Shown in pieces: positions 38,548 to 50,594 of a stretch of 64,000 nt of DNA. The notes under the pieces are model-generated. The model was not told where the DNA came from. It worked only from the letters and a program-made list of their open reading frames with translations, and did no database searches. The stretch is from Macrostomum lignano (lineage: Eukaryota), in assembly GCA_002269645.1 (NCBI GenBank), contig NIVC01003342.1, forward strand, positions 1 to 64,000, in the 5' to 3' direction. The position numbers were made by a program, and so were the translations under genes. Position 1 is the stretch's first letter. Every line of letters starts with the position of its first letter.

Positions 38548-39132
38548 TCTTCATTAAGGCATAATAGTTTTCTATTGTTGTTTTTGTCTGCAAGCAGCAA
38601 TGTATAAGGATATCTATTGTTTGATACTACAAAAATACTTTTTAAACAGGCCTATTCAATATAAGCAGAAGTATGTGAGTAATTAATATAATAATAAGGC
38701 ATGGAATAACTAATCTATTTCTAATGGCAACACACAAGTGGCTAAAGGCAGTATAAACTGTTTTACCTAATAGTTATGTACATGTTTTATGATATGCCAA
38801 ATAGGTACTATTATATAGTAGTTAGATGATGCTTTAGAATAATGTGAGTATAAGACATTAGAAAATATATGTAGCAGAAAAGGGAAACCTTAGAAATGGG
38901 TTGCCTACTACTGGGTTGGCATGCTTGAAATTTGCTTTTTACATTTACAAATATACTCTAGCCTATAGCTATTTTGCATCTAATATATTTAATCCTTAAC
39001 TTGATTTTTAAAGCTATCTATAATTAAAATTGATGAAATACTTACCTTTAGCTTTAGGTACCTTTAGCTTTACCTTTAGGTATACTACCTTTAGGTAATA
39101 TATTAAGGCCAGATAAATTAAAATTTATCTTT

Positions 39133-40205
39133 TGATGTTTTCCTTATTACCAGTCCTCAACTGTAATCAAGGAACAATCACTTCTAGCTCTGTAGCTAGG
39201 CAACCCAGTAATCAAATGAAGGTATTCAATTACCTTTGAGTCCTTAAATGAGAGCTCTCGTAATAATCCTCGTCCGTAGTATCGCGATCAGTAACTTTCC
39301 TGTCCTTCAGGAAGTTTAGGCGCCTGGTAACAGTTGATCTGGTCCGTTATCTCCTTTGTCCTCTTGACTTCTTGCCGGCCGGTATCTGTAGTTCGGACCA
39401 ATCGGAAGCTTCCAAATTAACAATGGGGATCCCTGCGCCGAACTGCGGTTTAATATAAGCCTACTCCTTCAGTAGTGCCTCTCTGCACTCTAGGTATAGC
39501 TCCGGAAACCACTGATAGTCTTCTAAGACCTATCAGGGGCAGTCCTTCTGGAGACTGCAACCAGTGGAGTCTAAACAGACTCAAGAGTCTCAGCAGACTC
39601 AAATAAACTCAAGTCTCAATAGACTTGAGCGAGACGTCTCAACCAACGGGCGCAAATGAGTAAGGCTTACCGCAAGAACTCGTCCACGATGCGAGTTTCT
39701 TCAGGAAGGCTTCACTAGAGCTTCCTCTTCGGAGCTTCTCTCCTTGGAGATTTTGTGGCTCCGGGTCCGTTCCGGACCACTTGTATTTATAGGCGTTCAG
39801 ACCTCTCTCGAGGTCGTACATCACTGTCTTCGCAAATGTCAAAGGGTCACGATTCGGTGGCTGTCAAGCATGACAGGGTAGAAAGTTGCGCAACTAGTCT
39901 ACTGTAAAAGCGCATGATTGGTTACCGTAGCTGGTAGACTTTGATTGGTTCATCCGGGTGCAACCCGAGTGCAAACAAAATGATGACTTGAAGGTGGGGT
40001 TTGAATTGACAGTTGTTGGTCGCACGTGATTGGGTGATTTCTAAAATTAGCATGCTCGAGGTCTCTCTCTTCCTATTGGTTAGTCCGAATATACTTATAG
40101 TTCAAAGCATACCTTCATTCATGCTCTTCAATTTACTACTAAATAAATGTGTGAGTAGTACATTAACACTTTTATGTCTTCTTACGGGAGGTAGAACACT
40201 CTACA
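39133..40205 (-). repeat. 3' LTR (1073 bp)
   Basis: On the minus strand it begins TGTAGAG and ends CATCA. By eye it differs from the 5' LTR only by two 1-nt C-run indels. Confidence 0.95.
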
Positions 40206-40426
40206 AAATCTCCCATGTTTACAAAAAACTCGTCCCGAGTTTTAAATTATAGAGGATTGAAACGCATAAAAATTACGAGCATGTCTTTATAAAAATCTTT
40301 TGTCACAAGTGTTACAGGTATTTAGTAATGGGTAGTTAAGAGCGTTGGTTATAAAAGTTATTTAAAGGTAAGTATACGCATGCAAATAAAATGTTTTTGG
40401 TTACAGTATTGACATGTGCGCCAAGA

Positions 40427-40639
40427 CTAACAATAGGCGCACTGCCGCAAACTACTTCTACCTATCGGGCAATTCTGCCAGAGCTGAATATAATGTGAGT
40501 CGCTTAAATATTGTCCGCATATGCGATGTCTGTTTTCACAAATAATTGGTGGCTTGACAGCCAAGTCATCAGTTAAACATATTGGGCATTCGTAGAGTTG
40601 CTGTAGTTGGGGCGCCTGTTTGGACAGTGCGTTGCCCAT
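40427..40639 (-). CDS. Element-encoded 70-aa N-myristoylation-motif RING-HC-like protein, two ligands degenerate
   Basis: acaATGG Kozak context. MGNALSK; CPIC-x11-C-x3-H-x2-C-x2-Y...CPIGR. The Y (TAT) and G (GGT) codons are each one base from Cys TGT. Confidence 0.6.
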   Translation of the reverse strand: MGNALSKQAPQLQQLYECPICLTDDLAVKPPIICENRHRICGQYLSDSHYIQLWQNCPIGRSSLRQCAYC

Positions 40640-40728
40640 TGTCGTCGTCGCTTGAAGTTTGAAGTCGCTCAGATTAGTCGCCTCTTACGACAAGCTTGCG
40701 AAGCTGTAGAGCTATTCTGACCCGGTCT

Positions 40729-42096
40729 CTACACGGGTTGTTTTCGCAACTTAACGAGGTCGCAGATTGTAGCCATGTTGCTGGTTCTCGGTTGATGTTT
40801 GTGTCTCCTCGTGTTTTGTTGCGATGTGGCGGTTCGCCGAACGCGTGCGATCAGCGTTGTTAGTGACGGTAAAAACGTTGTCGTGTCAGTGTTGATCTTC
40901 TTTAGTCGATGAATGTGCACGTAGAATTGGTGCTGATGAGGATCTTGCACATTGGCCAGGCGTGCCGTTGTCGGTGACGTTAGTTGGACCACTCGATATG
41001 GTCCTTTGTACTTCTGTGCGTGTTTGTGCGTCTGTTGCGGCGGATAGTGCAGGTAGACGATGTCGCCGGCTGTCAGAGTTGTCGATCTCGTGTCGGTGCC
41101 GGTGGTTAGAGCCACCTGATTGTCGATGTTGTGCTTGGCTACTTTCCATGCGAGGTGTAGTTGCGTGACGAACTTTTGAATGGACGTCGGGACTTCCACA
41201 TATTGCGATGGTAGTAGTTGCTGTGCCAATAGGTTTGGCGGCTGGAAGTCTCGCCCAAACATTAGAAAGAATGGCGTATTGTCCGTTGATCGATGAATAG
41301 CGCTGTTGTAGGCCATTGTTACTGCTTGCAGATAGATGATCCAGTCGTCCGGTTGTTGATGCGCGAAGTGTGTAATCATCTCGTGTAGGTTGCGGTGAAA
41401 CCTTTCAACCATGTTCGCCTTCGGATTGTAGGTCGATGTGTAGATCTGCGTGATGTTGAGGATCTTCACCACTTGCTGAAAGAGTTGAGACGTAAACTGC
41501 GATCCATTGTCCGATGTGAGGTTCTTTGGCGTACCGTACTTGCAGATGATGTCGTTGAAGAAACCCATTGCCACTGTCTGAGCTGTGATGTCCGGTATTG
41601 GTATGGCAATAGCAAACTTTGAGAAAATGTCCAAGGCTGTTAGGATGTAGGTGTAGGCTATGCCATGGAGACAGCTCGGTGGCAGCGGTCCGGTGATGTC
41701 GATGCTGAGACAGTCCATAGTTGTTGACTTTGGTATCGATTGTAGCTGTGGTTTTTGTCGTCGTCCTGTCTTTGATGCTGCGCATGAGTGGCAGTTGTTG
41801 CAATACTGCTTGATGTCGCCATGCATGCTTGGCCAAAAGTAGTATTGCTCCACTCTTGCAATGGTTTTGGCTGCCGACAGGTGTCCAGCGAGTGGGTTGT
41901 CGTGCAGCTCGTTGAGAATTGCCTGCCTAAACGAATATGGCATGTAGATTTTAGGTTTGTTGTCACTCATCCAGTAGAGTCGTGACTTGTTGATTGTTAA
42001 ATGCTGTCGCTGCTTGCGCAGGAATTTTCGTTCCACGGGGCTGAGCTTGATGTCCTTGTCGTTGTTTTTAACTGCTTGGTAGAAGTAGTCGTTCAC
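40729..42096 (-). CDS. pol: Integrase part of pol: HHCC zinc finger, DDE core, GPY/F
   Basis: LHDNPLAGH...CNNCHSC; SIDITG; TSDNGSQF; MVERFHR; YKGPYRV. In frame with the upstream RT/RNase H but separated from it by a TGA at 42100-42102. Confidence 0.95.
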   Translation of the reverse strand: MNDYFYQAVKNNDKDIKLSPVERKFLRKQRQHLTINKSRLYWMSDNKPKIYMPYSFRQAILNELHDNPLAGHLSAAKTIARVEQYYFWPSMHGDIKQYCNNCHSCAASKTGRRQKPQLQSIPKSTTMDCLSIDITGPLPPSCLHGIAYTYILTALDIFSKFAIAIPIPDITAQTVAMGFFNDIICKYGTPKNLTSDNGSQFTSQLFQQVVKILNITQIYTSTYNPKANMVERFHRNLHEMITHFAHQQPDDWIIYLQAVTMAYNSAIHRSTDNTPFFLMFGRDFQPPNLLAQQLLPSQYVEVPTSIQKFVTQLHLAWKVAKHNIDNQVALTTGTDTRSTTLTAGDIVYLHYPPQQTHKHAQKYKGPYRVVQLTSPTTARLANVQDPHQHQFYVHIHRLKKINTDTTTFLPSLTTLIARVRRTATSQQNTRRHKHQPRTSNMATICDLVKLRKQPV

Positions 42097-42099
42097 GTT

Positions 42100-44286
42100 T
42101 CATCCATCAATCCTTGATGTTAGGATTGGATGAATGGCGTTGACTTCGTAGGCTCTTGACAGGGCGTCCGCGGCCTTGTTAGTAATTCCTGGTTTGTAGA
42201 CGAGCTTGTAGTTGTAGTCCTGGATCTTGAGTGTCATCCTGATGAGTCGGTTGTTTGTTTGTCCTTTTGTAGTTACGACGTAGGTCAGCGGTGCATGATC
42301 TGTGCGTACTATCGTCTGTAATGGAGATCCATAGATGTAGTAGTGAAACTGTCGTAGGGCGAACAGAACTCCTAGTAGTTCTCGTTCCGTAGCTGACCAT
42401 TTTGTCTCATTCGGTTTAAGTGCTCGACTGACGTAGGCTATAGGTCGTTCCTTTTTGTCTTCAGTTTCCTGTAGTAGGACTGCTCCGAGTCCCGTTCCTG
42501 AGGCGTCTGTCTCGATGATGAAGGGTTTGTCGAAGTCCGGATGCTGTAGCAGTGCGTCTGATGTCAGCTGTCGTTTGATTTCGTCAAAACTTTCTTGTTG
42601 CTTTTGTGTCCAATTCTCCTGCTTCCATTTGTCGAACTTGAGCAGGTCGTACAGCGGCTTTGCTGTCTTCGCGAAGTTGGGTAAGAACTTTCGGAAGTAT
42701 TGCGCAAGTCCAAGAAATGATTGGACCTTCGTTATGCTAGTTGGCGTAGGAAACTTTTTCACTTTATCCACGTTGTCTGGGTCCGGTGAAATTCCTTTGG
42801 CTGTCACCTGATGTCCCAGGTAACGCACGTTGTCTCGGAAGAATTTGCATTTAGTTGGTTGTAGCTTCAGACCTTGACGTTGTATAAGCGCGAGGGCCTT
42901 CTCCGTCGCTTCATAGAGTCGTTCGAAGTCTTCTCCGTAGGCCAAGATGTCGTCAACATAGTGCAACAGGTTCGTGCATCCTGCAAGCATGTATGCTGTT
43001 AGTCGGCTCATCGTTGCTGGGCTGTTGCTGAGTCCCATCGGCGATCGATTGTACTCGTATACTTGTCCATTGTAGGTTTTGAAAGCCGTGTACTGTCGTG
43101 ACTCTTTCTCGATTTCAATTTGCCAAAATCCATGACGTAGGTCGAACACTGTGAACAATTTTGCCGTGTTGAGCTTTGCTAGTAGTTCGGAGATCTTCGG
43201 TAGGCTTTGCTGATCCGTCGGTATGTACTTGTTCAGCAGTCTGAAGTCACATACGAGTCGTCTTTCGTTAGTCTCCTTCTTTTGCACCAAGAGACATGGT
43301 GATGAGTATGCTGAAATGGCTTTGCTGATGATGCCGTGTTTCAGCATTTTGTCGATAATCTCATCGAAGTGCTGTTGCAGATGCTTGGCGATCGGGTACG
43401 GTTTGCACTGAATTGGTTCCGTGTGCGGCAGAAGTTTGATTTCCTGTTTGATGTCCTTGGCTCGTCCGATGTCGTAGTCATGGTGGCAGAAAGCGTCGTT
43501 GTACTTCCACAACAGCTGTCGAACTTTCCTCTTTTGCTGTTCCGTAATCGGGCTGTCATCCAAATTGATCTTCTTTTGAAATTCTTCCTCTGTTAGTCGT
43601 GGAGTCGCTTGCTCAATCAGCATAACCGATGCTTGGGTGTTGAGATGACCGATGCACATTCCTTGTCGTAGATGAACCGTTTCTGTGTTCGGGTTGAATA
43701 TTTGTACTGGCAGCTGTTTATCTTTTGCAACCAGTACTAGTGCCGTAGGCATCATAATTTGGTGTTTAGCCGTGACTCTTCTGTTTGGGTCGAATATCAT
43801 TGCTTCCTCCGTTGCGTTAGTTGCCTTTGCCTTTATCCAGCAGGCGCTCTCCGGTTGGATGATGACATCTTGTTGCAATGTTACTTTTGGTAGTACTCGG
43901 ATCTGGTTGATCAATGGTTGTTCTACCGAGTCGATCTTAAACGTTTGCTTATTGAAGTCGAAGGTCAATGGTAGTCTAAGCTGCTTGAACGTGTCGATGC
44001 CAACAATAACGTCCTGGTTTGGGAGTCTGTCGATGACGTACGATGGAACTGTCAAATGTTTATTAGCGATTCTTAAATCAATGTCGGCTTTTCCCAGAAT
44101 GTTTAGCGAATGTCCTCCTGCTCCTGCAACTGCGATTGTTGCTGGCCGTAGAGCAAGTCGTAGCTTGTTGCACAGTTGTTTTGATATAACTGTGATGGAG
44201 CTGCCGGAATCGAGTAGCGCTCGACATGGTAGATTGTTGATTACCACTTGAGCCATGCTTTGCCAATTTCGGCGTGTAGAGTACAT
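42100..44286 (-). CDS. pol: Pol: aspartic protease, reverse transcriptase, RNase H
   Basis: ALLDSGSS; RLVCDFRLLN; DLRHGFWQI; PMGLSNSP; YVDD; ETDASGTGLGAVL; ERELLG; TDHAPL; NKAADALSR. Confidence 0.96.
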   Translation of the reverse strand: MYSTRRNWQSMAQVVINNLPCRALLDSGSSITVISKQLCNKLRLALRPATIAVAGAGGHSLNILGKADIDLRIANKHLTVPSYVIDRLPNQDVIVGIDTFKQLRLPLTFDFNKQTFKIDSVEQPLINQIRVLPKVTLQQDVIIQPESACWIKAKATNATEEAMIFDPNRRVTAKHQIMMPTALVLVAKDKQLPVQIFNPNTETVHLRQGMCIGHLNTQASVMLIEQATPRLTEEEFQKKINLDDSPITEQQKRKVRQLLWKYNDAFCHHDYDIGRAKDIKQEIKLLPHTEPIQCKPYPIAKHLQQHFDEIIDKMLKHGIISKAISAYSSPCLLVQKKETNERRLVCDFRLLNKYIPTDQQSLPKISELLAKLNTAKLFTVFDLRHGFWQIEIEKESRQYTAFKTYNGQVYEYNRSPMGLSNSPATMSRLTAYMLAGCTNLLHYVDDILAYGEDFERLYEATEKALALIQRQGLKLQPTKCKFFRDNVRYLGHQVTAKGISPDPDNVDKVKKFPTPTSITKVQSFLGLAQYFRKFLPNFAKTAKPLYDLLKFDKWKQENWTQKQQESFDEIKRQLTSDALLQHPDFDKPFIIETDASGTGLGAVLLQETEDKKERPIAYVSRALKPNETKWSATERELLGVLFALRQFHYYIYGSPLQTIVRTDHAPLTYVVTTKGQTNNRLIRMTLKIQDYNYKLVYKPGITNKAADALSRAYEVNAIHPILTSRIDG

Positions 44287-46507
44287 ACGTAGTTTCTGGC
44301 CATTTTGGGTCTTGCTGTTCTGCTTGATAGTTAGGTGGTTGTATTCTTGGTGCCGTTGGTGTTGTCGGAATCGATGGATATAGCCGCGTTGCTAGTGTCG
44401 GTTGCCCTTGAACCTCACGATGTGCAGTTTCTGTTAGTTCTAAACTGTTGTCGCCTTCCGTTGTCGTTCTTTGCATTATGGCATTCACTGTCTTCTTAGC
44501 TCTTGGACAAGTTTGACTGAAGCACCGTACGATTGACGAAATGATGAAGATTGCCGTGACAATCCACACAATGCAAGCACCGTAGAAGATGAATCCTTGA
44601 TAGAGACTGCCTCTTCCATTGAGCAGCTCCCAGAAGCTGTTTGTCCAAAATGATTTGATGGCGCTGTCCATTGAAACAAGGACGGGAAATCTTCCTGTCC
44701 CGGTTCCTTTGTCCTTTCTTGTGAACAGCTGGTGAATCATCTTGCGTTGGGTGATGAACGCTTGCAAGAAGTCGTTGATCGTCCATCCTGGTGTTATCTC
44801 GTCAAGTTGGATATCGGCGAATGGCGTATACTTCGTTCTGTTGAATCGGATTTTCAAATCCTCCATGTCGTAGTTTTCGTCGACGATTACTTCCGGTTCT
44901 GTGATGTTTGCTGTCGTTCCAGTTGTTTTGATGACGTGTAGTGCATTGTCCAGTTGATAGTAGTTTGCTGCCGTGGTGCAGGGTCTCGGTATTGCGGTGC
45001 CAACTATGATGTTGTGTACCGTGTCCAAGAATCCCTGAATTCGTTTTCCTTCGTAGAACGCTTCAATCCTTGGCTTGTCGTAGCAGGTTGTTGACGTGTT
45101 CGACGGCAAGATGTTAAAGTGCTGTATCGGCGTGCACTTGTATATCAACAGATGCTCGTATATTGGAACTGCCAAAACGTTCGTCATTCCGGTGATTTTA
45201 CGAAAAGTCATCGTAGGGTTGACATAGTAGTTTTGTCTGGCATAATTTAAGTTGATTGCGTGCATTTTGCAAGTTAGCTGGACCAGTGTTCGATGCAAGT
45301 GGTTTAACTGGTTGTGTAGATTGTGATCCAAAGCCGTTATCTTTGCTGACAGTAGTCGGTTTGACACCAGTTTGGGACGTTCGATGTCACGTCGTCGTCT
45401 GTTCTGTTGTTCCTGCTGTTGATAAGTTCCGTTGATGATCGCCAGAAAGGTTTGTTTGTCGTCATCTTTTACGTAGACTGGTATCTCTTGTTCCGAGATG
45501 AATAGTGTCTTGTCTGTATCCTTGCATTTCAGTTTTTGCTCGACTGGTTTCTTTTGAAACGTCAGTGCCAAGTCTCCTGACTTTGCCAAAAACGTGTTTG
45601 ACAGTAGGCCTCCTTCCACTGTGTGGTACTTTTGTAGTTGACAGTCGATTTCCGTCTCAACCTTCCAAGCGAAGAAATATTGTCGTGACTTTGATGGTTC
45701 TTCGTAGTGTGGATCGGCTCTGTGCACTATCTGCCATCGATAGTCTGGATGATACGTTGGACTCAGCGGTAGGCTGTAGAGTTCTGCATTTCGCAATATC
45801 GGCGTTGGGCACCATCCTTCGCTGTATCGGCATTCACTTAGTTGCAGTTGCAGTGATTCCATTTTCTCGTACGGATTGTAGTAGAACGGAACATTCCTGA
45901 TTAGGTAGCTGTTGCGTGCCGTGTAGTCAGGCCATCTTTCATTATAGTGGACATATCGACCGTTTGCCACATTCTTTGTTCGGAAGAGTTGTGCGTTGCC
46001 GACCTTTTCATCAGGTTCTAGTACACCATCTTTGGAGAACAATGTCTGGTTCCATCGTAGGCAGTCAGCGTGCGACACATGTAGCTCATGCTGTCGGAAT
46101 CGGATTCTGTTCCATTGTCCTCGCCATATTTTTTCGACTAGGTGCTTGTCTCTGAAGCACACTATTCCGAGTTGTCGATGCTTCTTGATGTTAGCTTTGT
46201 AGAGATCAATTGTGATCTTCTTTGGCTTCGTCTGGTTTGTCTTGAAGTAGCTGCATTTGATGTCGGTTGGTATCTTGTAGATCATCGGTTGGATATGCGC
46301 ATCCGTTGGACATATCATTGGTTTTTCCATTGCTGTTGCTTTGGTGACTACTGCCGTCAGTAGTATTATGATGATCCAGAATATCCAGAATCGCCATTTC
46401 CTGAACGTTGCCGTTGTCTTTGCTGGCATTGGCTGCGGCTGCCATTCGTTATCTTCTGCGTCCGCATCGTATTCTTCCTCTTGTTCCATTGGCGTTTCCG
46501 AGCGCAA
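44078..46507 (-). CDS. env: Envelope glycoprotein, herpesvirus gB/chuvirus G-like class III fusogen
   Basis: Signal or signal-anchor RKWRFWIFWIIIILLTAVVTKATA; ICP...KC N-terminus; N-glycosylation sequons (NQT x2, NGT, NTS, NIT, NRT); furin site NRRRR/D (45389-45400); gB-like NPT...G...LLIYKC.PI and CYDKP....Y..K.I.GFL....N......PRPC; TM FIFYGACIVWIVTAIFIISSIV; cytoplasmic tail. Confidence 0.82.
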   Translation of the reverse strand: MRSETPMEQEEEYDADAEDNEWQPQPMPAKTTATFRKWRFWIFWIIIILLTAVVTKATAMEKPMICPTDAHIQPMIYKIPTDIKCSYFKTNQTKPKKITIDLYKANIKKHRQLGIVCFRDKHLVEKIWRGQWNRIRFRQHELHVSHADCLRWNQTLFSKDGVLEPDEKVGNAQLFRTKNVANGRYVHYNERWPDYTARNSYLIRNVPFYYNPYEKMESLQLQLSECRYSEGWCPTPILRNAELYSLPLSPTYHPDYRWQIVHRADPHYEEPSKSRQYFFAWKVETEIDCQLQKYHTVEGGLLSNTFLAKSGDLALTFQKKPVEQKLKCKDTDKTLFISEQEIPVYVKDDDKQTFLAIINGTYQQQEQQNRRRRDIERPKLVSNRLLSAKITALDHNLHNQLNHLHRTLVQLTCKMHAINLNYARQNYYVNPTMTFRKITGMTNVLAVPIYEHLLIYKCTPIQHFNILPSNTSTTCYDKPRIEAFYEGKRIQGFLDTVHNIIVGTAIPRPCTTAANYYQLDNALHVIKTTGTTANITEPEVIVDENYDMEDLKIRFNRTKYTPFADIQLDEITPGWTINDFLQAFITQRKMIHQLFTRKDKGTGTGRFPVLVSMDSAIKSFWTNSFWELLNGRGSLYQGFIFYGACIVWIVTAIFIISSIVRCFSQTCPRAKKTVNAIMQRTTTEGDNSLELTETAHREVQGQPTLATRLYPSIPTTPTAPRIQPPNYQAEQQDPKWPETTYVLYTPKLAKHGSSGNQQSTMSSATRFRQLHHSYIKTTVQQATTCSTASNNRSCRSRRTFAKHSGKSRH

Positions 46508-48063
46508 GGCATCCGATTCGTTCCGCTGCTTGTCGTCTTCATCATTTTCTCCTTGCTTTCTTCCGATGTTGTAGTTGTGTCACTCCATTGTCTGCGGTAC
46601 CCTACTTCGGCCTTGTAGTCGACTGTTTGAATGTAGGCTTCACCATTTCGTTTATATCGGATCTCGTAGCATTGATCGCTGTCGGAGCTTAGATTTCTTT
46701 CTTCCATTCCTTTGTGCCTTCCGTCTTCATGTTCTTTGTCGGCGGCTTGGTTGTCATCAGCGTCATTCTGCATCTCATAATCGTGATCGCTGCTTTCTTC
46801 TTGCTGTTCTTCTTCCATTTCTGCATTTCCGTCGTTGCTTCTTTCGTTGTCATCCTTCGTTGCCAGTTCTTTGTCGTTGCCTTTGTTTGTTTCTTCTTTT
46901 CTTTCATTGATGTCGCTTGGCAATGTTTTTTCTGTGCTCACTTCTGCCTTTTCTTCTTCGCTGTCAATGTTAGTTTCTTTCATTTCGACCATGCTGATGT
47001 TTTTTGTCTTTTCGCTGCTCTCCGCATCGAGCCAGTCGATTTCATTGATAGTGAAGTCCATTTCCAAGTCGTCTATCGTGAAGACTTGCTGCTCTTGCTG
47101 TTCGCTTTCCGGTGTGTACGTGATGGCGTTTGCATATCGTTGCATCGCTTGCGTTGGTTGCTTGGGCATGTATCTGGCGTTTCGCGGTCTGTAGCCAATG
47201 TTTCCTAAGCGTTTCGTGTTTTGCTGCTGCCAATTTTGATGCTGTTGCCATGGTTTTTGCGGCTTCCTTCTGTTGAATGGCTGTCGCTGCATGTCATTTC
47301 TTGTTGACCGATGAGGACAATGTATTTGGTAGTGTCCTTCTCGTCCACAGTAATAGCATCTGGCTTGGGCTCGTTCATTTCGTCTTTTTTGTTCGGCGAT
47401 AACGGCTGTTTGATGTTGCATCAGTTTGTTTAGTTGCTGTGTCAGTTTCTGCACTTCTGTGTTGCCGGTTGTCATTAGTGGAGCGCTTGCTTCCCACTGC
47501 ATTCCGCACCGTAAAAGGTCTTCCTCGGTTTCAATGTTTTCGCGTAGAAGTCTATCTCGGAGTGACGGCTGTGCATTGTTTATTACGTGCAGAATCAGAT
47601 TTTGTTCGCGATCCATCAATCGCTGTCGCTCTCTAGCGGCTAATTCTGCCGCACCCAGAGGTGGTTGGTCTGCAGCTGGCAGTGTTGGCTGATGCAGTGC
47701 CTTAATTATCTGACGGATGTCGTCCACAAAGGTCAGGAAGGATTCGGTTGGCTGCATCCTTCTGTTATGCAACTTGTGCAGTAGCACTGATCTGTTTGTG
47801 CCACAGCGGTTGAAATGCGCGCGCAGTTGAATGATTAATGCTGGGTAGTTTTGCTGTGTTGCCGCATCTAGTTTACCATAAATCTCTCGTGCAGTGCCTT
47901 GGAGGAGTGCTGGCAACAGTTGCGCTTTTTCTGGATTTTGTAGGTTGTATTCCCTACATACCAGGTCAAAATGATCAACAAAGGTGTTAAAGTCTTTTTC
48001 CATAGAAAAGGTGCCAACTGTCTCTTTGATATCTCTGTGCACCGTTGGATTGCGCCGCGCCAT
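46366..48063 (-). CDS. gag: Gag: capsid-like domain, CCHC zinc knuckle, long acidic C-terminal tract
   Basis: FSMEKDFNTFVDHFDLVC...LLPALLQGTAREIY (retrotransposon gag pattern); CYYCGREGHYQIHC. Confidence 0.9.
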   Translation of the reverse strand: MARRNPTVHRDIKETVGTFSMEKDFNTFVDHFDLVCREYNLQNPEKAQLLPALLQGTAREIYGKLDAATQQNYPALIIQLRAHFNRCGTNRSVLLHKLHNRRMQPTESFLTFVDDIRQIIKALHQPTLPAADQPPLGAAELAARERQRLMDREQNLILHVINNAQPSLRDRLLRENIETEEDLLRCGMQWEASAPLMTTGNTEVQKLTQQLNKLMQHQTAVIAEQKRRNERAQARCYYCGREGHYQIHCPHRSTRNDMQRQPFNRRKPQKPWQQHQNWQQQNTKRLGNIGYRPRNARYMPKQPTQAMQRYANAITYTPESEQQEQQVFTIDDLEMDFTINEIDWLDAESSEKTKNISMVEMKETNIDSEEEKAEVSTEKTLPSDINERKEETNKGNDKELATKDDNERSNDGNAEMEEEQQEESSDHDYEMQNDADDNQAADKEHEDGRHKGMEERNLSSDSDQCYEIRYKRNGEAYIQTVDYKAEVGYRRQWSDTTTTSEESKEKMMKTTSSGTNRMPCARKRQWNKRKNTMRTQKITNGSRSQCQQRQRQRSGNGDSGYSGSS

Positions 48064-48730
48064 GTTGTTGATGGGATAGAACGGTAGCTCTAGGTCTGGG
48101 TCGATTTGTAATGGATCTTCCAGTGTGGTGTTTCTTTCGAAATAAACTTCGGTTGTAACTGATTGTCTCGCGGCGCTTTTGACACCTCAATTTGTTATGT
48201 CTGACCTTGAGCGGAATTCGGCTTTTGGCTGCTTTTTCTGACCTCTTATTCGCTGGCTGATTTTCGCACTTATGCGGCGTCCCGCAAAGTGTATCTTTAA
48301 AGTGCTTGAAGTGCAGCTGCTTCTTGCTTTTTTCAAAGGCCTTTCTTGTCTTCGTGACGTGCCTTGTCACGTTTTATCAAATTTCGGTTTGTTTTAGCTT
48401 TCGTCAAGTGTTTTTGATTTCGGTTTTGTTTTAGTGTGTATTGATTATTTTTCGGTTTGTTTTCAGTGTACCGGACGTTGTTTTCGGTTTTGTTTAAGGT
48501 TTACTCTTGCTCGAGCTCGTTAAAAACAAAAATTTAACACGCGTGCTCAAACGTTACTCAAAATTGACAGGTACTCAAACCTGTACACAAAAATTTTTTT
48601 ACTCGAGTTTCAAAACGTACGGACTTCAAAAGTGTTAACTCTAACACGTGCGCGCAAAATAAATGAAGTCGCTCTTTCGTCACGTTACAATAGCTTGATC
48701 AGGGCTATTGCTCAAAGTTTGAGTAGTGCC

Positions 48731-48748
48731 GAGAGGGCGAGATCACCA
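48731..48748 (-). other. Primer binding site
   Basis: TGGTGATCTCGCCCTCTC, 2 nt after the 5' LTR. The TGG is complementary to the tRNA CCA end. The priming tRNA is uncertain; it is loosely Trp-like. Confidence 0.7.
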
Positions 48749-48750
48749 AT

Positions 48751-49825
48751 TGATGTTTTCCTTATTACCAGTCCTCAACTGTAATCAAGGAACAATCACT
48801 TCTAGCTCTGTAGCTAGGCAACCCAGTAATCAAATGAAGGTATTCAATTACCTTTGAGTCCTTAAATGAGAGCTCTCGTAATAATCCTCGTCCGTAGTAT
48901 CGCGATCAGTAACTTTCCTGTCCTTCAGGAAGTTTAGGCGCCTGGTAACAGTTGATCTGGTCCGTTATCTCCTTTGTCCTCTTGACTTCTTGCCGGCCGG
49001 TATCTGTAGTTCGGACCAATCGGAAGCTTCCAAATTAACAATGGGGATCCCTGCGCCGAACTGCGGTTTAATATAAGCCTACTCCTTCCAGTAGTGCCTC
49101 TCTGCACTCTAGGTATAGCTCCGGAAACCACTGATAGTCTTCTAAGACCTATCAGGGGCAGTCCTTCTGGAGACTGCAACCAGTGGAGTCTAAACAGACT
49201 CAAGAGTCTCAGCAGACTCAAATAAACTCAAGTCTCAATAGACTTGAGCGAGACGTCTCAACCAACGGGCGCAAATGAGTAAGGCTTACCGCAAGAACTC
49301 GTCCACGATGCGAGTTTCTTCAGGAAGGCTTCACTAGAGCTTCCTCTTCGGAGCTTCTCTCCCTTGGAGATTTTGTGGCTCCGGGTCCGTTCCGGACCAC
49401 TTGTATTTATAGGCGTTCAGACCTCTCTCGAGGTCGTACATCACTGTCTTCGCAAATGTCAAAGGGTCACGATTCGGTGGCTGTCAAGCATGACAGGGTA
49501 GAAAGTTGCGCAACTAGTCTACTGTAAAAGCGCATGATTGGTTACCGTAGCTGGTAGACTTTGATTGGTTCATCCGGGTGCAACCCGAGTGCAAACAAAA
49601 TGATGACTTGAAGGTGGGGTTTGAATTGACAGTTGTTGGTCGCACGTGATTGGGTGATTTCTAAAATTAGCATGCTCGAGGTCTCTCTCTTCCTATTGGT
49701 TAGTCCGAATATACTTATAGTTCAAAGCATACCTTCATTCATGCTCTTCAATTTACTACTAAATAAATGTGTGAGTAGTACATTAACACTTTTATGTCTT
49801 CTTACGGGAGGTAGAACACTCTACA
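48751..49825 (-). repeat. 5' LTR (1075 bp)
   Basis: Direct repeat of 39133-40205, followed by the PBS on the minus strand. Confidence 0.95.
49404..49411 (-). promoter_or_regulatory. Probable LTR TATA box (TATAAATA) with upstream CCAAT boxes
   Basis: Plus-strand tatttata. Several gattgg (CCAATC on minus) lie 5' of it in U3. The same motif is at 39784-39791. Confidence 0.5.
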
Positions 49826-50594
49826 CTTTTTAGAAAAAATAGAAAATTGAATAATTGAAAAAAATTAAAAAAACAAATATTTTTTTAAAAGTTCAAGATT
49901 TGAAGTTCACCTTACCTTAAAAAAACTTTTTACTCAACCTTTTATAGAATAGGAGATAGGACTTCATAGGTAAAGTAGGCTAATAAGAACATCTTGAAAA
50001 ATAATATATATACTAATTTTGCGCTGTATTTGTGTGTGCATGCGTGTAATTGATTTTTTTGAGAATGGCTCAACTGATTCTCTTCAAACTTGCACCATTT
50101 GATCAGAAATTTTCCTGGGACGGTACATGCATCTTGGCTAAGAAATTGCTCAATGTTAAAGGGATTAAATATTCAAAAAACATGATTTTCTGCAAAGGTC
50201 AAGCAGCTCTTTCAACCTGAAATGCATTGTAAGAATGCTAGAGAAAAACCTGACTGGCTGAATTTCAATTCTGATAAAGATTGCATCACAACAAGTTGAA
50301 AACAGTGCCAAAGAAATGCACACATGACTTGATTTAAATTGCGTAACCATATTGCTAACTTAAATTGAGACTGATACTGGCTGACTGAGAAATCAATTAT
50401 GTCATAACTTTTTATCCTAACCAACTTGCTATAAGTATTGAATTATAAGGGCCCCAATTCATGTTCTCCAATTGAAAAGAGATAGCCTAGATGCAAACAG
50501 ACTGGACTGCTAATGTAGCGACCAGGGTTTGAATCTAAGTAGTGCATGATAACTTTTTTATTAAAACACCTTAAAAACACAAAATGCTAAACAT

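Follow-up and report, generated by a model that had tools for sequence, protein, structure and literature searches.

A young Ty3/gypsy element of the flatworm Macrostomum lignano that encodes Gag, a predicted class III envelope and Pol in one reading frame

The element and its long terminal repeats

The stretch analysed here, referred to as the window, comprises 64,000 nucleotides of the Macrostomum lignano genome (assembly GCA_002269645.1, contig NIVC01003342.1, positions 1 to 64,000). Its minus strand carries, at 39133-49825, an element bounded by long terminal repeats (LTRs), in which gag with a CCHC motif, env, a region for protease (PR), reverse transcriptase (RT) and RNase H (RH), integrase (IN) and a small open reading frame (ORF) of RING type follow one another (Table 1). 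From stop to stop, the frames of this copy are gag 48186-46366, env 46579-44078, PR-RT-RH 44391-42100, IN 42099-40729 and a Cys-rich frame 40684-40427. The features of Metaviridae (Ty3/gypsy) are present, namely two LTRs, a target duplication, a primer-binding site and the order PR-RT-RH-IN. The Pfam domains of pol are arranged as PF13650/PF13975, PF00078, PF17917/PF17919, PF17921 and PF00665, and the nearest RT relatives are of gypsy type.

Table 1. Features of the element, in window coordinates (TM, transmembrane segment)
Feature	Position	Strand	Remarks
Target-site duplication	49826..49829		4 bp, partner 39129-39132
5' LTR	48751..49825	-	about 1.07 kb, TG..CA ends, TATAAA at 49411
Primer-binding site	48737..48748	-	12 nt, TGG start, 2 nt past 5' LTR
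Leader	48064..48750	-	687 nt, A-rich, zero ATG
Gag part of polyprotein	46391..48063	-	ATG 48063; capsid-like region, CCHC, basic region, long acidic spacer
TM1, predicted internal signal segment	46331..46390	-	basic n-region, hydrophobic core, A-x-A-type end; putative cleavage
Predicted class III (gB-like) ectodomain	44597..46330	-	12 Cys, 6 sequons, furin-type RRRR 45400-45389
TM2, predicted stop-transfer anchor	44540..44596	-	hydrophobic peak
Tail motifs LYPSI, PTAP, PPNY (late-domain-like)	44327..44383	-	cytosolic tail, 3 motifs within 19 residues
PR + RT + RNase H	42100..44240	-	LLDSG 44217, YVDD 42960, ETDAS 42513
Integrase	40729..42099	-	HHCC 41904, DDE core, GPY 41004
ORF2, MG-start RING-type zinc finger	40427..40639	-	70 aa in window copy, two Zn ligands altered
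3' LTR	39133..40205	-	preceded by short purine run alone
Target-site duplication	39129..39132		4 bp, partner 49826-49829

The two LTRs of the window copy, the one copy dated in this way, align over 1076 columns with no substitution and two one-base gaps. In one contig of run X15 the two flanks meet at a lone copy of the target duplication, the shorter side being 30 letters long, and therefore an empty allele or a homeolog exists. Because the LTRs are near-identical and such an empty site is found, the insertion is young. A preliminary description, made from the letters of the window alone, had called the element a young Ty3/gypsy element, and the LTRs, the 4-bp target duplication and the gypsy-type pol domains bear this out. 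The purine run before the 3' LTR consists of 6 nt and lies 3 nt away from it, while a polypurine tract of Metaviridae has about ten purines. No tRNA gene was found in the 64-kb window. Gag has a single CCHC knuckle (47358-47317), and its capsid-like region has no Pfam match, yet it is the most conserved part of the element, with a ratio of nonsynonymous to synonymous divergence (dN/dS) of 0.01-0.02. That the leader has no ATG points to selection favouring scanning as far as the start of the polyprotein.

A single reading frame from Gag to integrase

In the preliminary description, env was an ORF of 809 codons lying between gag and the protease and overlapping both. The signal-like segment, the Cys pattern, the sequons, the RRRR site and the TM segment described in this span are indeed there; the overlaps are not a property of the genes. 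The span begins at TTG rather than ATG, and measures 833 aa from stop to stop. Set against a 99.1%-identical sister copy, the reading frame of the window copy is broken near 46.55, 44.29 and 44.26 kb, and it is because of such breaks that gag and env, and env and PR, overlap in the window. In addition, a stop lies between RH and IN at 42100-42102, which is unique among the copies read, and the IN tail is disturbed near 40.86 kb.

Sister copies restore the frame. A search of the same genome with the env region yielded 90 candidates, 40 of which were scored, and all 40 match at 91-100% identity. Among 38 distinct copies, neighbouring parts share an ORF at 29 of the 37 gag-env junctions, 27 of the 38 env-PR junctions and all 16 RH-IN junctions. 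In five of 30 loci the frame stays open from gag into RT, across env and PR, and the full frame of 2538 codons, from gag to the end of IN, is present in four of the 16 longer loci, two more being broken in the IN tail alone. When the genome was searched at the protein level, 82 env matches came up, 11 of them inside frames of at least 2400 aa; two of these 11 belong to a family of 63-66% identity. A deposited M. lignano protein (P0058), for which no source paper was found, runs unbroken from env to IN with 99.5% identity over 1488 aa (mid-env to the end of IN). Contigs from runs of four studies lack three of the breaks of the window; such contigs drop rare variants and do not separate assembly error from private mutation. 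The family thus encodes a single ORF of about 2,500 aa, in the order Gag-acidic spacer-TM1-Env-TM2-tail-PR-RT-RH-IN, and a RING ORF located downstream and apart from it; the window copy shows the long frame in damaged form. In most sister copies Env forms one domain within a polyprotein, not the separate overlapping gene it had been taken for.

The window copy taken by itself reads as three overlapping genes that programmed frameshifting and read-through of a stop would connect, but such an arrangement is very improbable. Eleven of the 38 copies are indeed broken between env and PR, and eight of 37 between gag and env. The breaks are, however, scattered over several places, 84 of 102 break places being found in a single copy; no slippery heptamer occurs at the gag/env break of the window or in the TM2-PR interval of the five copies that share a break there; and most copies are continuous, RH and IN in all 16. 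The lack of a slippery heptamer together with the spread of the breaks largely refutes a programmed frameshift. Indels adjoin a homopolymer run in 75 of 108 cases against a background of 58%, an excess too mild to tell assembly error from mutation.

It is next to inconceivable that the assembly is chimeric here or that an insertion with env has landed inside one gag-pol element. The copies of the family in this assembly do contain many small indels, but the gag-env-pol order is the same in all 30 loci read except one that is curtailed by a contig end, and recurs in other animals and in two further families, one 63-66% and the other about 30% identical, and Env is under purifying selection and in frame with its neighbours. 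These loci and the related families refute a chimera or a nested insertion, and the position of env between gag and pol is a trait of the family, as had been proposed.

Paired LTRs occur on several contigs of the family. Tandem pairs of copies were seen on two contigs of the genome (G000 C669 and C2447), at spacings of 10,787 and 9,729 nt, the latter fitting a shared LTR. On four others (C2121, C1130, C87 and C272), many copies and pieces of the family are packed together, and these could be insertion hot spots or graveyards similar to clusters for PIWI-interacting RNA (piRNA). As for the surroundings of the window copy, exons of a host gene similar to importin-13/transportin-3 lie on the minus strand at 38547-37825 and 36043-35555 (PF08389, PF24138). 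The element is inserted some 580 nt ahead of this gene's apparent start codon in the same orientation, so the 3' LTR could affect it. The window also contains minisatellite arrays with units of 8-59 nt (5.7-7.3, 25.2-26.4, 29.9-33.5, 36.7-37.7, 54.4-54.9, 57.9-58.9 and 59.6-63.9 kb) and a dispersed repeat of about 60-90 nt (22.9-23.1, 56.4-56.5 and 59.0-59.1 kb).

The envelope domain, its relatives and published elements

As a single sequence, the env region gave no match in a search of the Protein Data Bank (PDB), and in Pfam it reaches PF24664 at E=2.3e-5, short of the cut-off. A profile built from the window protein together with 21 relatives, drawn from an unindexed protein search that gave 52 env relatives at E<=0.001, matches gB of Epstein-Barr virus (EBV) with E=1.1e-14, over the same stretch that had been aligned by eye with the gB core in the preliminary description; 37 of the 38 PDB sequences listed for this profile are herpesvirus gB. 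An AlphaFold model built from 49 sequences has a mean predicted local distance difference test (pLDDT) of 81.8, and Foldseek pairs it with gB of Kaposi's sarcoma-associated herpesvirus (KSHV) at E=7.4e-21, every chain listed among 123 PDB matches at E<=0.001 being herpesvirus gB. In the model, inspection places aromatic residues at the turn of the 70-73 hairpin and in the 118-135 loop; class III fusogens have two hydrophobic fusion loops, at the tip of domain I. By its predicted gB/G/gp64 fold the envelope is a candidate class III viral fusogen, and in this respect the earlier proposal has been upheld by AlphaFold and Foldseek. A herpesvirus origin is not implied: in BFVD, glycoproteins of a nyamivirus and of rhabdo-like type rank as the top two for the model and herpesvirus gB appears from rank 6, and because of this ranking 'gB-like' is to be taken as a class of predicted fold, from which the donor cannot be named. 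The domain order and the modelled fold are shared with herpesvirus gB and with nyamivirus, chuvirus and rhabdo-like G proteins; the envelope of the window differs from these fusogens in that identity is 10-15%, that it is embedded in a Gag-Pol polyprotein and that no gH/gL partner is encoded.

In a natural chain of 2498 aa, two strong hydrophobic peaks (620-638 and 1216-1234) flank Env, and by eye a TM1-like segment is also seen in the relatives P0001 and P0003. The tail behind TM2 contains LYPSI, PTAP and PPNY, which we take to represent the three classical types of late domain. All three together arose in none of 20,000 shuffles, in a test chosen after the motifs had been seen, and a tail motif is present in four of 17 relatives against 0.63 expected. 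The tail of a second flatworm family, at about 30% identity, has PSAP and LYPTL.

Pairwise Nei-Gojobori comparison of natural copies between subfamilies gave, in addition to the value for the capsid region above, dN/dS of at most 0.01 for RT, 0.04 for IN and 0.05-0.06 for PR. Env stands at 0.07-0.08 in both halves, like pol, and the acidic spacer at 0.37-0.40. These ratios point to strong purifying selection on Env, and by such comparisons the Gag-Env-Pol layout appears old and selected. Synonymous divergence (dS) between the copy L039 and the copies L002 and L017 is a mosaic, being 0.04-0.06 in post-furin env and 0.6-0.9 in capsid, pre-furin env and PR, which points to probable recent recombination between subfamilies.

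Among 20 relatives scanned, picked mostly by length, eight have env followed by PR-RT in one chain, six of these eight with a CCHC motif before env; gene models among them could hide introns, which those called from contigs cannot. The named hosts of env-then-pol relatives are Macrostomum lignano, Globodera and Panagrolaimus, and one scanned relative is a BEL/Pao protein with env after IN. An RT tree made with FastTree from 76 sequences (all env-bearing ones and the 60 best of 120 others; midpoint root, no named references) joins the window family to the second flatworm family with a support of 0.99, apart from the nematode-named group (P0051, P0021), its deep nodes being unresolved. An RT phylogeny had been proposed as a check of the element, and it gives the family this flatworm neighbour. 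Several relatives are worth recording in their own right. The protein P0003 (2852 aa) stands for a second family in Macrostomum, 25-31% identical and likewise built as a Gag-Env-Pol chain; its annotation is just hypothetical protein or RNA-directed DNA polymerase. P0132 of Caenorhabditis remanei has an env-profile match before RT, and in the RT tree it joins none of the other groups with env first. P0016, an env relative, lies on a 9-kb contig labelled as a metagenome-assembled genome of a Kangiellaceae bacterium, probably animal DNA binned with the bacterium.

The atypical gene order is real; it has also been published already. Errantiviruses of Nematoda, Bryozoa and Platyhelminthes that have gB-type ENV alone and are arranged GAG-ENV-POL are described in passages of a recent survey, with ectodomains flanked by two TM segments, and the survey credits the first report of env before pol, in a nematode metavirus, to Sacco et al. 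(2022) (Chary and Hayashi, eLife 2026, PMC13524379). Its table includes Platyhelminthes_Rhabditophora_Mlig_errantivirus_2, with an LTR spacing of 9727 and a primer-binding site matching a tRNA end with one mismatch. The 12-nt primer-binding site of this entry is identical to that of the window family, and the spacing compares with 9729 between two tandem sister copies; by these two features, with no sequence comparison, the window family is apparently Mlig_errantivirus_2. The operational definition of a GAG-ENV-POL gB-type errantivirus, with env between gag and pol, a TM-flanked gB-type ectodomain and multiple near-identical LTR copies, fits the family. The published elements share with it a Ty3/gypsy pol, a gB-type env between gag and pol, multiple copies and a flatworm host. 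They differ in that their ORFs are said to be 'arranged' GAG-ENV-POL, with no processing model or downstream ORF in the parts of the paper covered; its main text has no mention of polyprotein, single ORF, frameshift, fused or RING, and its supplements none of fused or readthrough. A literature search, outside which lay subscription journals and preprint supplements, found neither the single-chain processing model nor the RING ORF. Gene order and envelope class are thus published and the family apparently catalogued, and the correction to a single polyprotein, the assembly model and the RING cassette are additions.

In the Globodera protein P0051, 2517 aa long, the layout is also gag-env-pol. 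The nematode element of Sacco and colleagues, a non-canonical endogenous retrovirus, is said to have a continuous gag-env-pro-pol ORF, a nyamivirus-like env and extra 3' ORFs, with which P0051 and the BFVD ranking would agree; its continuous ORF, if so, is shared with the window family, which differs in its flatworm host and its position outside the nematode-named RT group (no formal clade test). Drosophila gypsy has LTR, primer-binding site, gag, pol (PR-RT-RH-IN) and env like the window family, and infectious particles are known for gypsy. In the genus Errantivirus env is located downstream of integrase (PMC7879559), and the window env, upstream of PR, is placed otherwise than in this definition. 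The env of Drosophila gypsy is F-type according to the parts of the survey covered (PMC13524379), while that of the window is of predicted class III.

Proposed assembly and the downstream RING gene

It is probable that the family represents a recently active, env-carrying Ty3/gypsy element of the published GAG-ENV-POL gB kind, whose one ORF is used through two-pass membrane polyprotein processing. By the rules of translocation into the endoplasmic reticulum (ER), the topology given by TM1 and TM2 would leave Gag and Pol cytosolic and Env lumenal. As read from the frame and its motifs, genomic RNA would be translated once, at the ER, with Gag remaining in the cytosol. TM1 would serve as an internal signal, guiding Env across the membrane into the lumen; its cleavage by signal peptidase would leave Gag anchored to the membrane via TM1 without a matrix domain. 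Furin would split Env, and TM2 would return the chain to the cytosol, so that Pol could be carried into the particle on the Env tail until released by the element's own protease. The LYPx/PTAP/PPxY motifs of the tail may recruit the endosomal sorting complex required for transport (ESCRT) for budding, and the class III trimer would fuse particles with new cells, probably passing from soma to stem or germ cells. Parallels to single steps are known: structural polyproteins of flavi- and alphaviruses have capsid and then an internal signal and glycoprotein in one chain, the foamy-virus Env leader is a retained signal peptide touching the capsid, and arenavirus Z is a small myristoylated RING protein. 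The likeness to the window element is one of proposed working and not of demonstrated homology.

Downstream of IN, the fourth ORF noticed in the preliminary description is present as an MG-start frame of RING type, ORF2. The genome has 151 matches to it; 59 of 64 env matches have one located 3.5-5.2 kb downstream, two of the misses being at contig ends (18 partial env matches were left out, and 82 of 150 listed ORF2 matches entered). In most copies of the sister subfamily ORF2 has 124 to more than 180 aa and two RING-like units, and dN/dS is 0.14-0.27. It matches the RING of TRIM31 at E=5e-4. A second paralogue (about 30% identity) follows close downstream at at least 14 places and a third at three of them; these positions, like the full lengths of ORF2 and its paralogues in the long subfamily, come from match coordinates alone. 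In a related family (42-45% identity in ORF2; contigs G000 C1063, C1064, C1405 and others), three RING paralogues were observed in a row. None of 25 candidate homologues outside the genome passed. The single-sequence model has a pLDDT of 34.6, and Atlas recognition is below the reliable level, giving leads only, with arenavirus Z as a 0.87 lead at rank 17. CAG between IN and ORF2 is common to both subfamilies, and RNA structure in this interval was rejected (z=-0.81 and -0.45). CERV of Cer1, considered as a parallel, is a different protein by passages of text, and those on extra ORFs of rotifers mention neither RING nor zinc. The N-terminus is MGNALS, its MG..S start being presumably a putative N-myristoylation motif. 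The most likely role of ORF2, from these features, is that of a RING E3 ligase targeted to membranes, which would act on host defence or budding, and most likely ORF2 is dispensable in the subfamily of the window.

Several points weigh against the probable polyprotein processing and its accessory gene. From a single ORF, Gag, Env and Pol would be made in equal molar amounts, an uncommon situation among enveloped retroviruses. TM1 was missed by a fixed threshold in several long relatives, the monomer model of Env superimposes on gB with a TM-score of about 0.43 and a root-mean-square deviation (rmsd) of about 13, and 13 of the 17 relatives' tails have no late-domain-like motifs, the motif test being post hoc. 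Some breaks are shared, by five copies between TM2 and PR and by four before TM2, and the gag/env break of the window is common to one other copy; shared breaks may represent defective sublineages, duplicated segments or recurrent errors. For ORF2, the C3HC4-type pattern is complete in sister copies while its Pfam RING matches (E=1e-4 to 5e-3) are below the cut-offs, and in the subfamily of the window the frame ends at 70 aa, 21 listed copies being cut short.

Alternatively, splicing could govern the ratio of products from the one ORF, a minor RNA skipping env and giving an ordinary cytosolic Gag-Pol and retrotransposition independent of membrane insertion. Gag and Pol share a frame in undamaged copies, so that an in-frame skip is possible, and spliced RNAs are common in retroelements, as in passages on Cer1 (PMC10309623). 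On the other hand, no GT-AG joint spanning env is found among the 15 of 22 joints listed from four runs, whose contigs drop rare forms and whose status as RNA is a guess, and such splicing is improbable. It is likewise unlikely, if a little less so, that Env folds and is maintained but works inside the animal, by budding into the ER or at cell contacts, with passage from cell to cell and no free virus. This would suit the result that one protein alone passed the env query in a word-indexed search of a 90% collection, as well as the location of the nearest other families in the same genome or species and the absence of any horizontal spread among the evidence found; entry of gB-type elements is also called unknown in a passage of the survey (PMC13524379). 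The furin site, the sequons, the aromatic hairpin tips and the tail motifs would instead agree with transport via the Golgi and with budding from the cell surface.

If the probable two-pass processing of the polyprotein is accepted, a further step may be considered tentatively, with more doubt than confidence: an assembly mode new for reverse-transcribing viruses, in which a retained Env signal would replace matrix, Pol would be packaged via the Env tail and the late domains would be located there, together with a growing array of tandem-RING genes, between one and three in number, of which the first starts with MG and whose products would resemble arenavirus Z or be E3 ligases directed against host defence. 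A single Gag-Env-Pol chain must reach membranes, package Pol and balance its products in ways other than those of retroviruses, and the parts of the published catalogue covered leave entry and assembly of such elements unexplained (PMC13524379). Being young, present in many copies and at home in a laboratory flatworm, the family offers concrete features to seek in the animal, such as the predicted cleavage sites, the tail motifs and the RING genes, and, if the model is true, a novel assembly mode that could be studied in a tractable flatworm.

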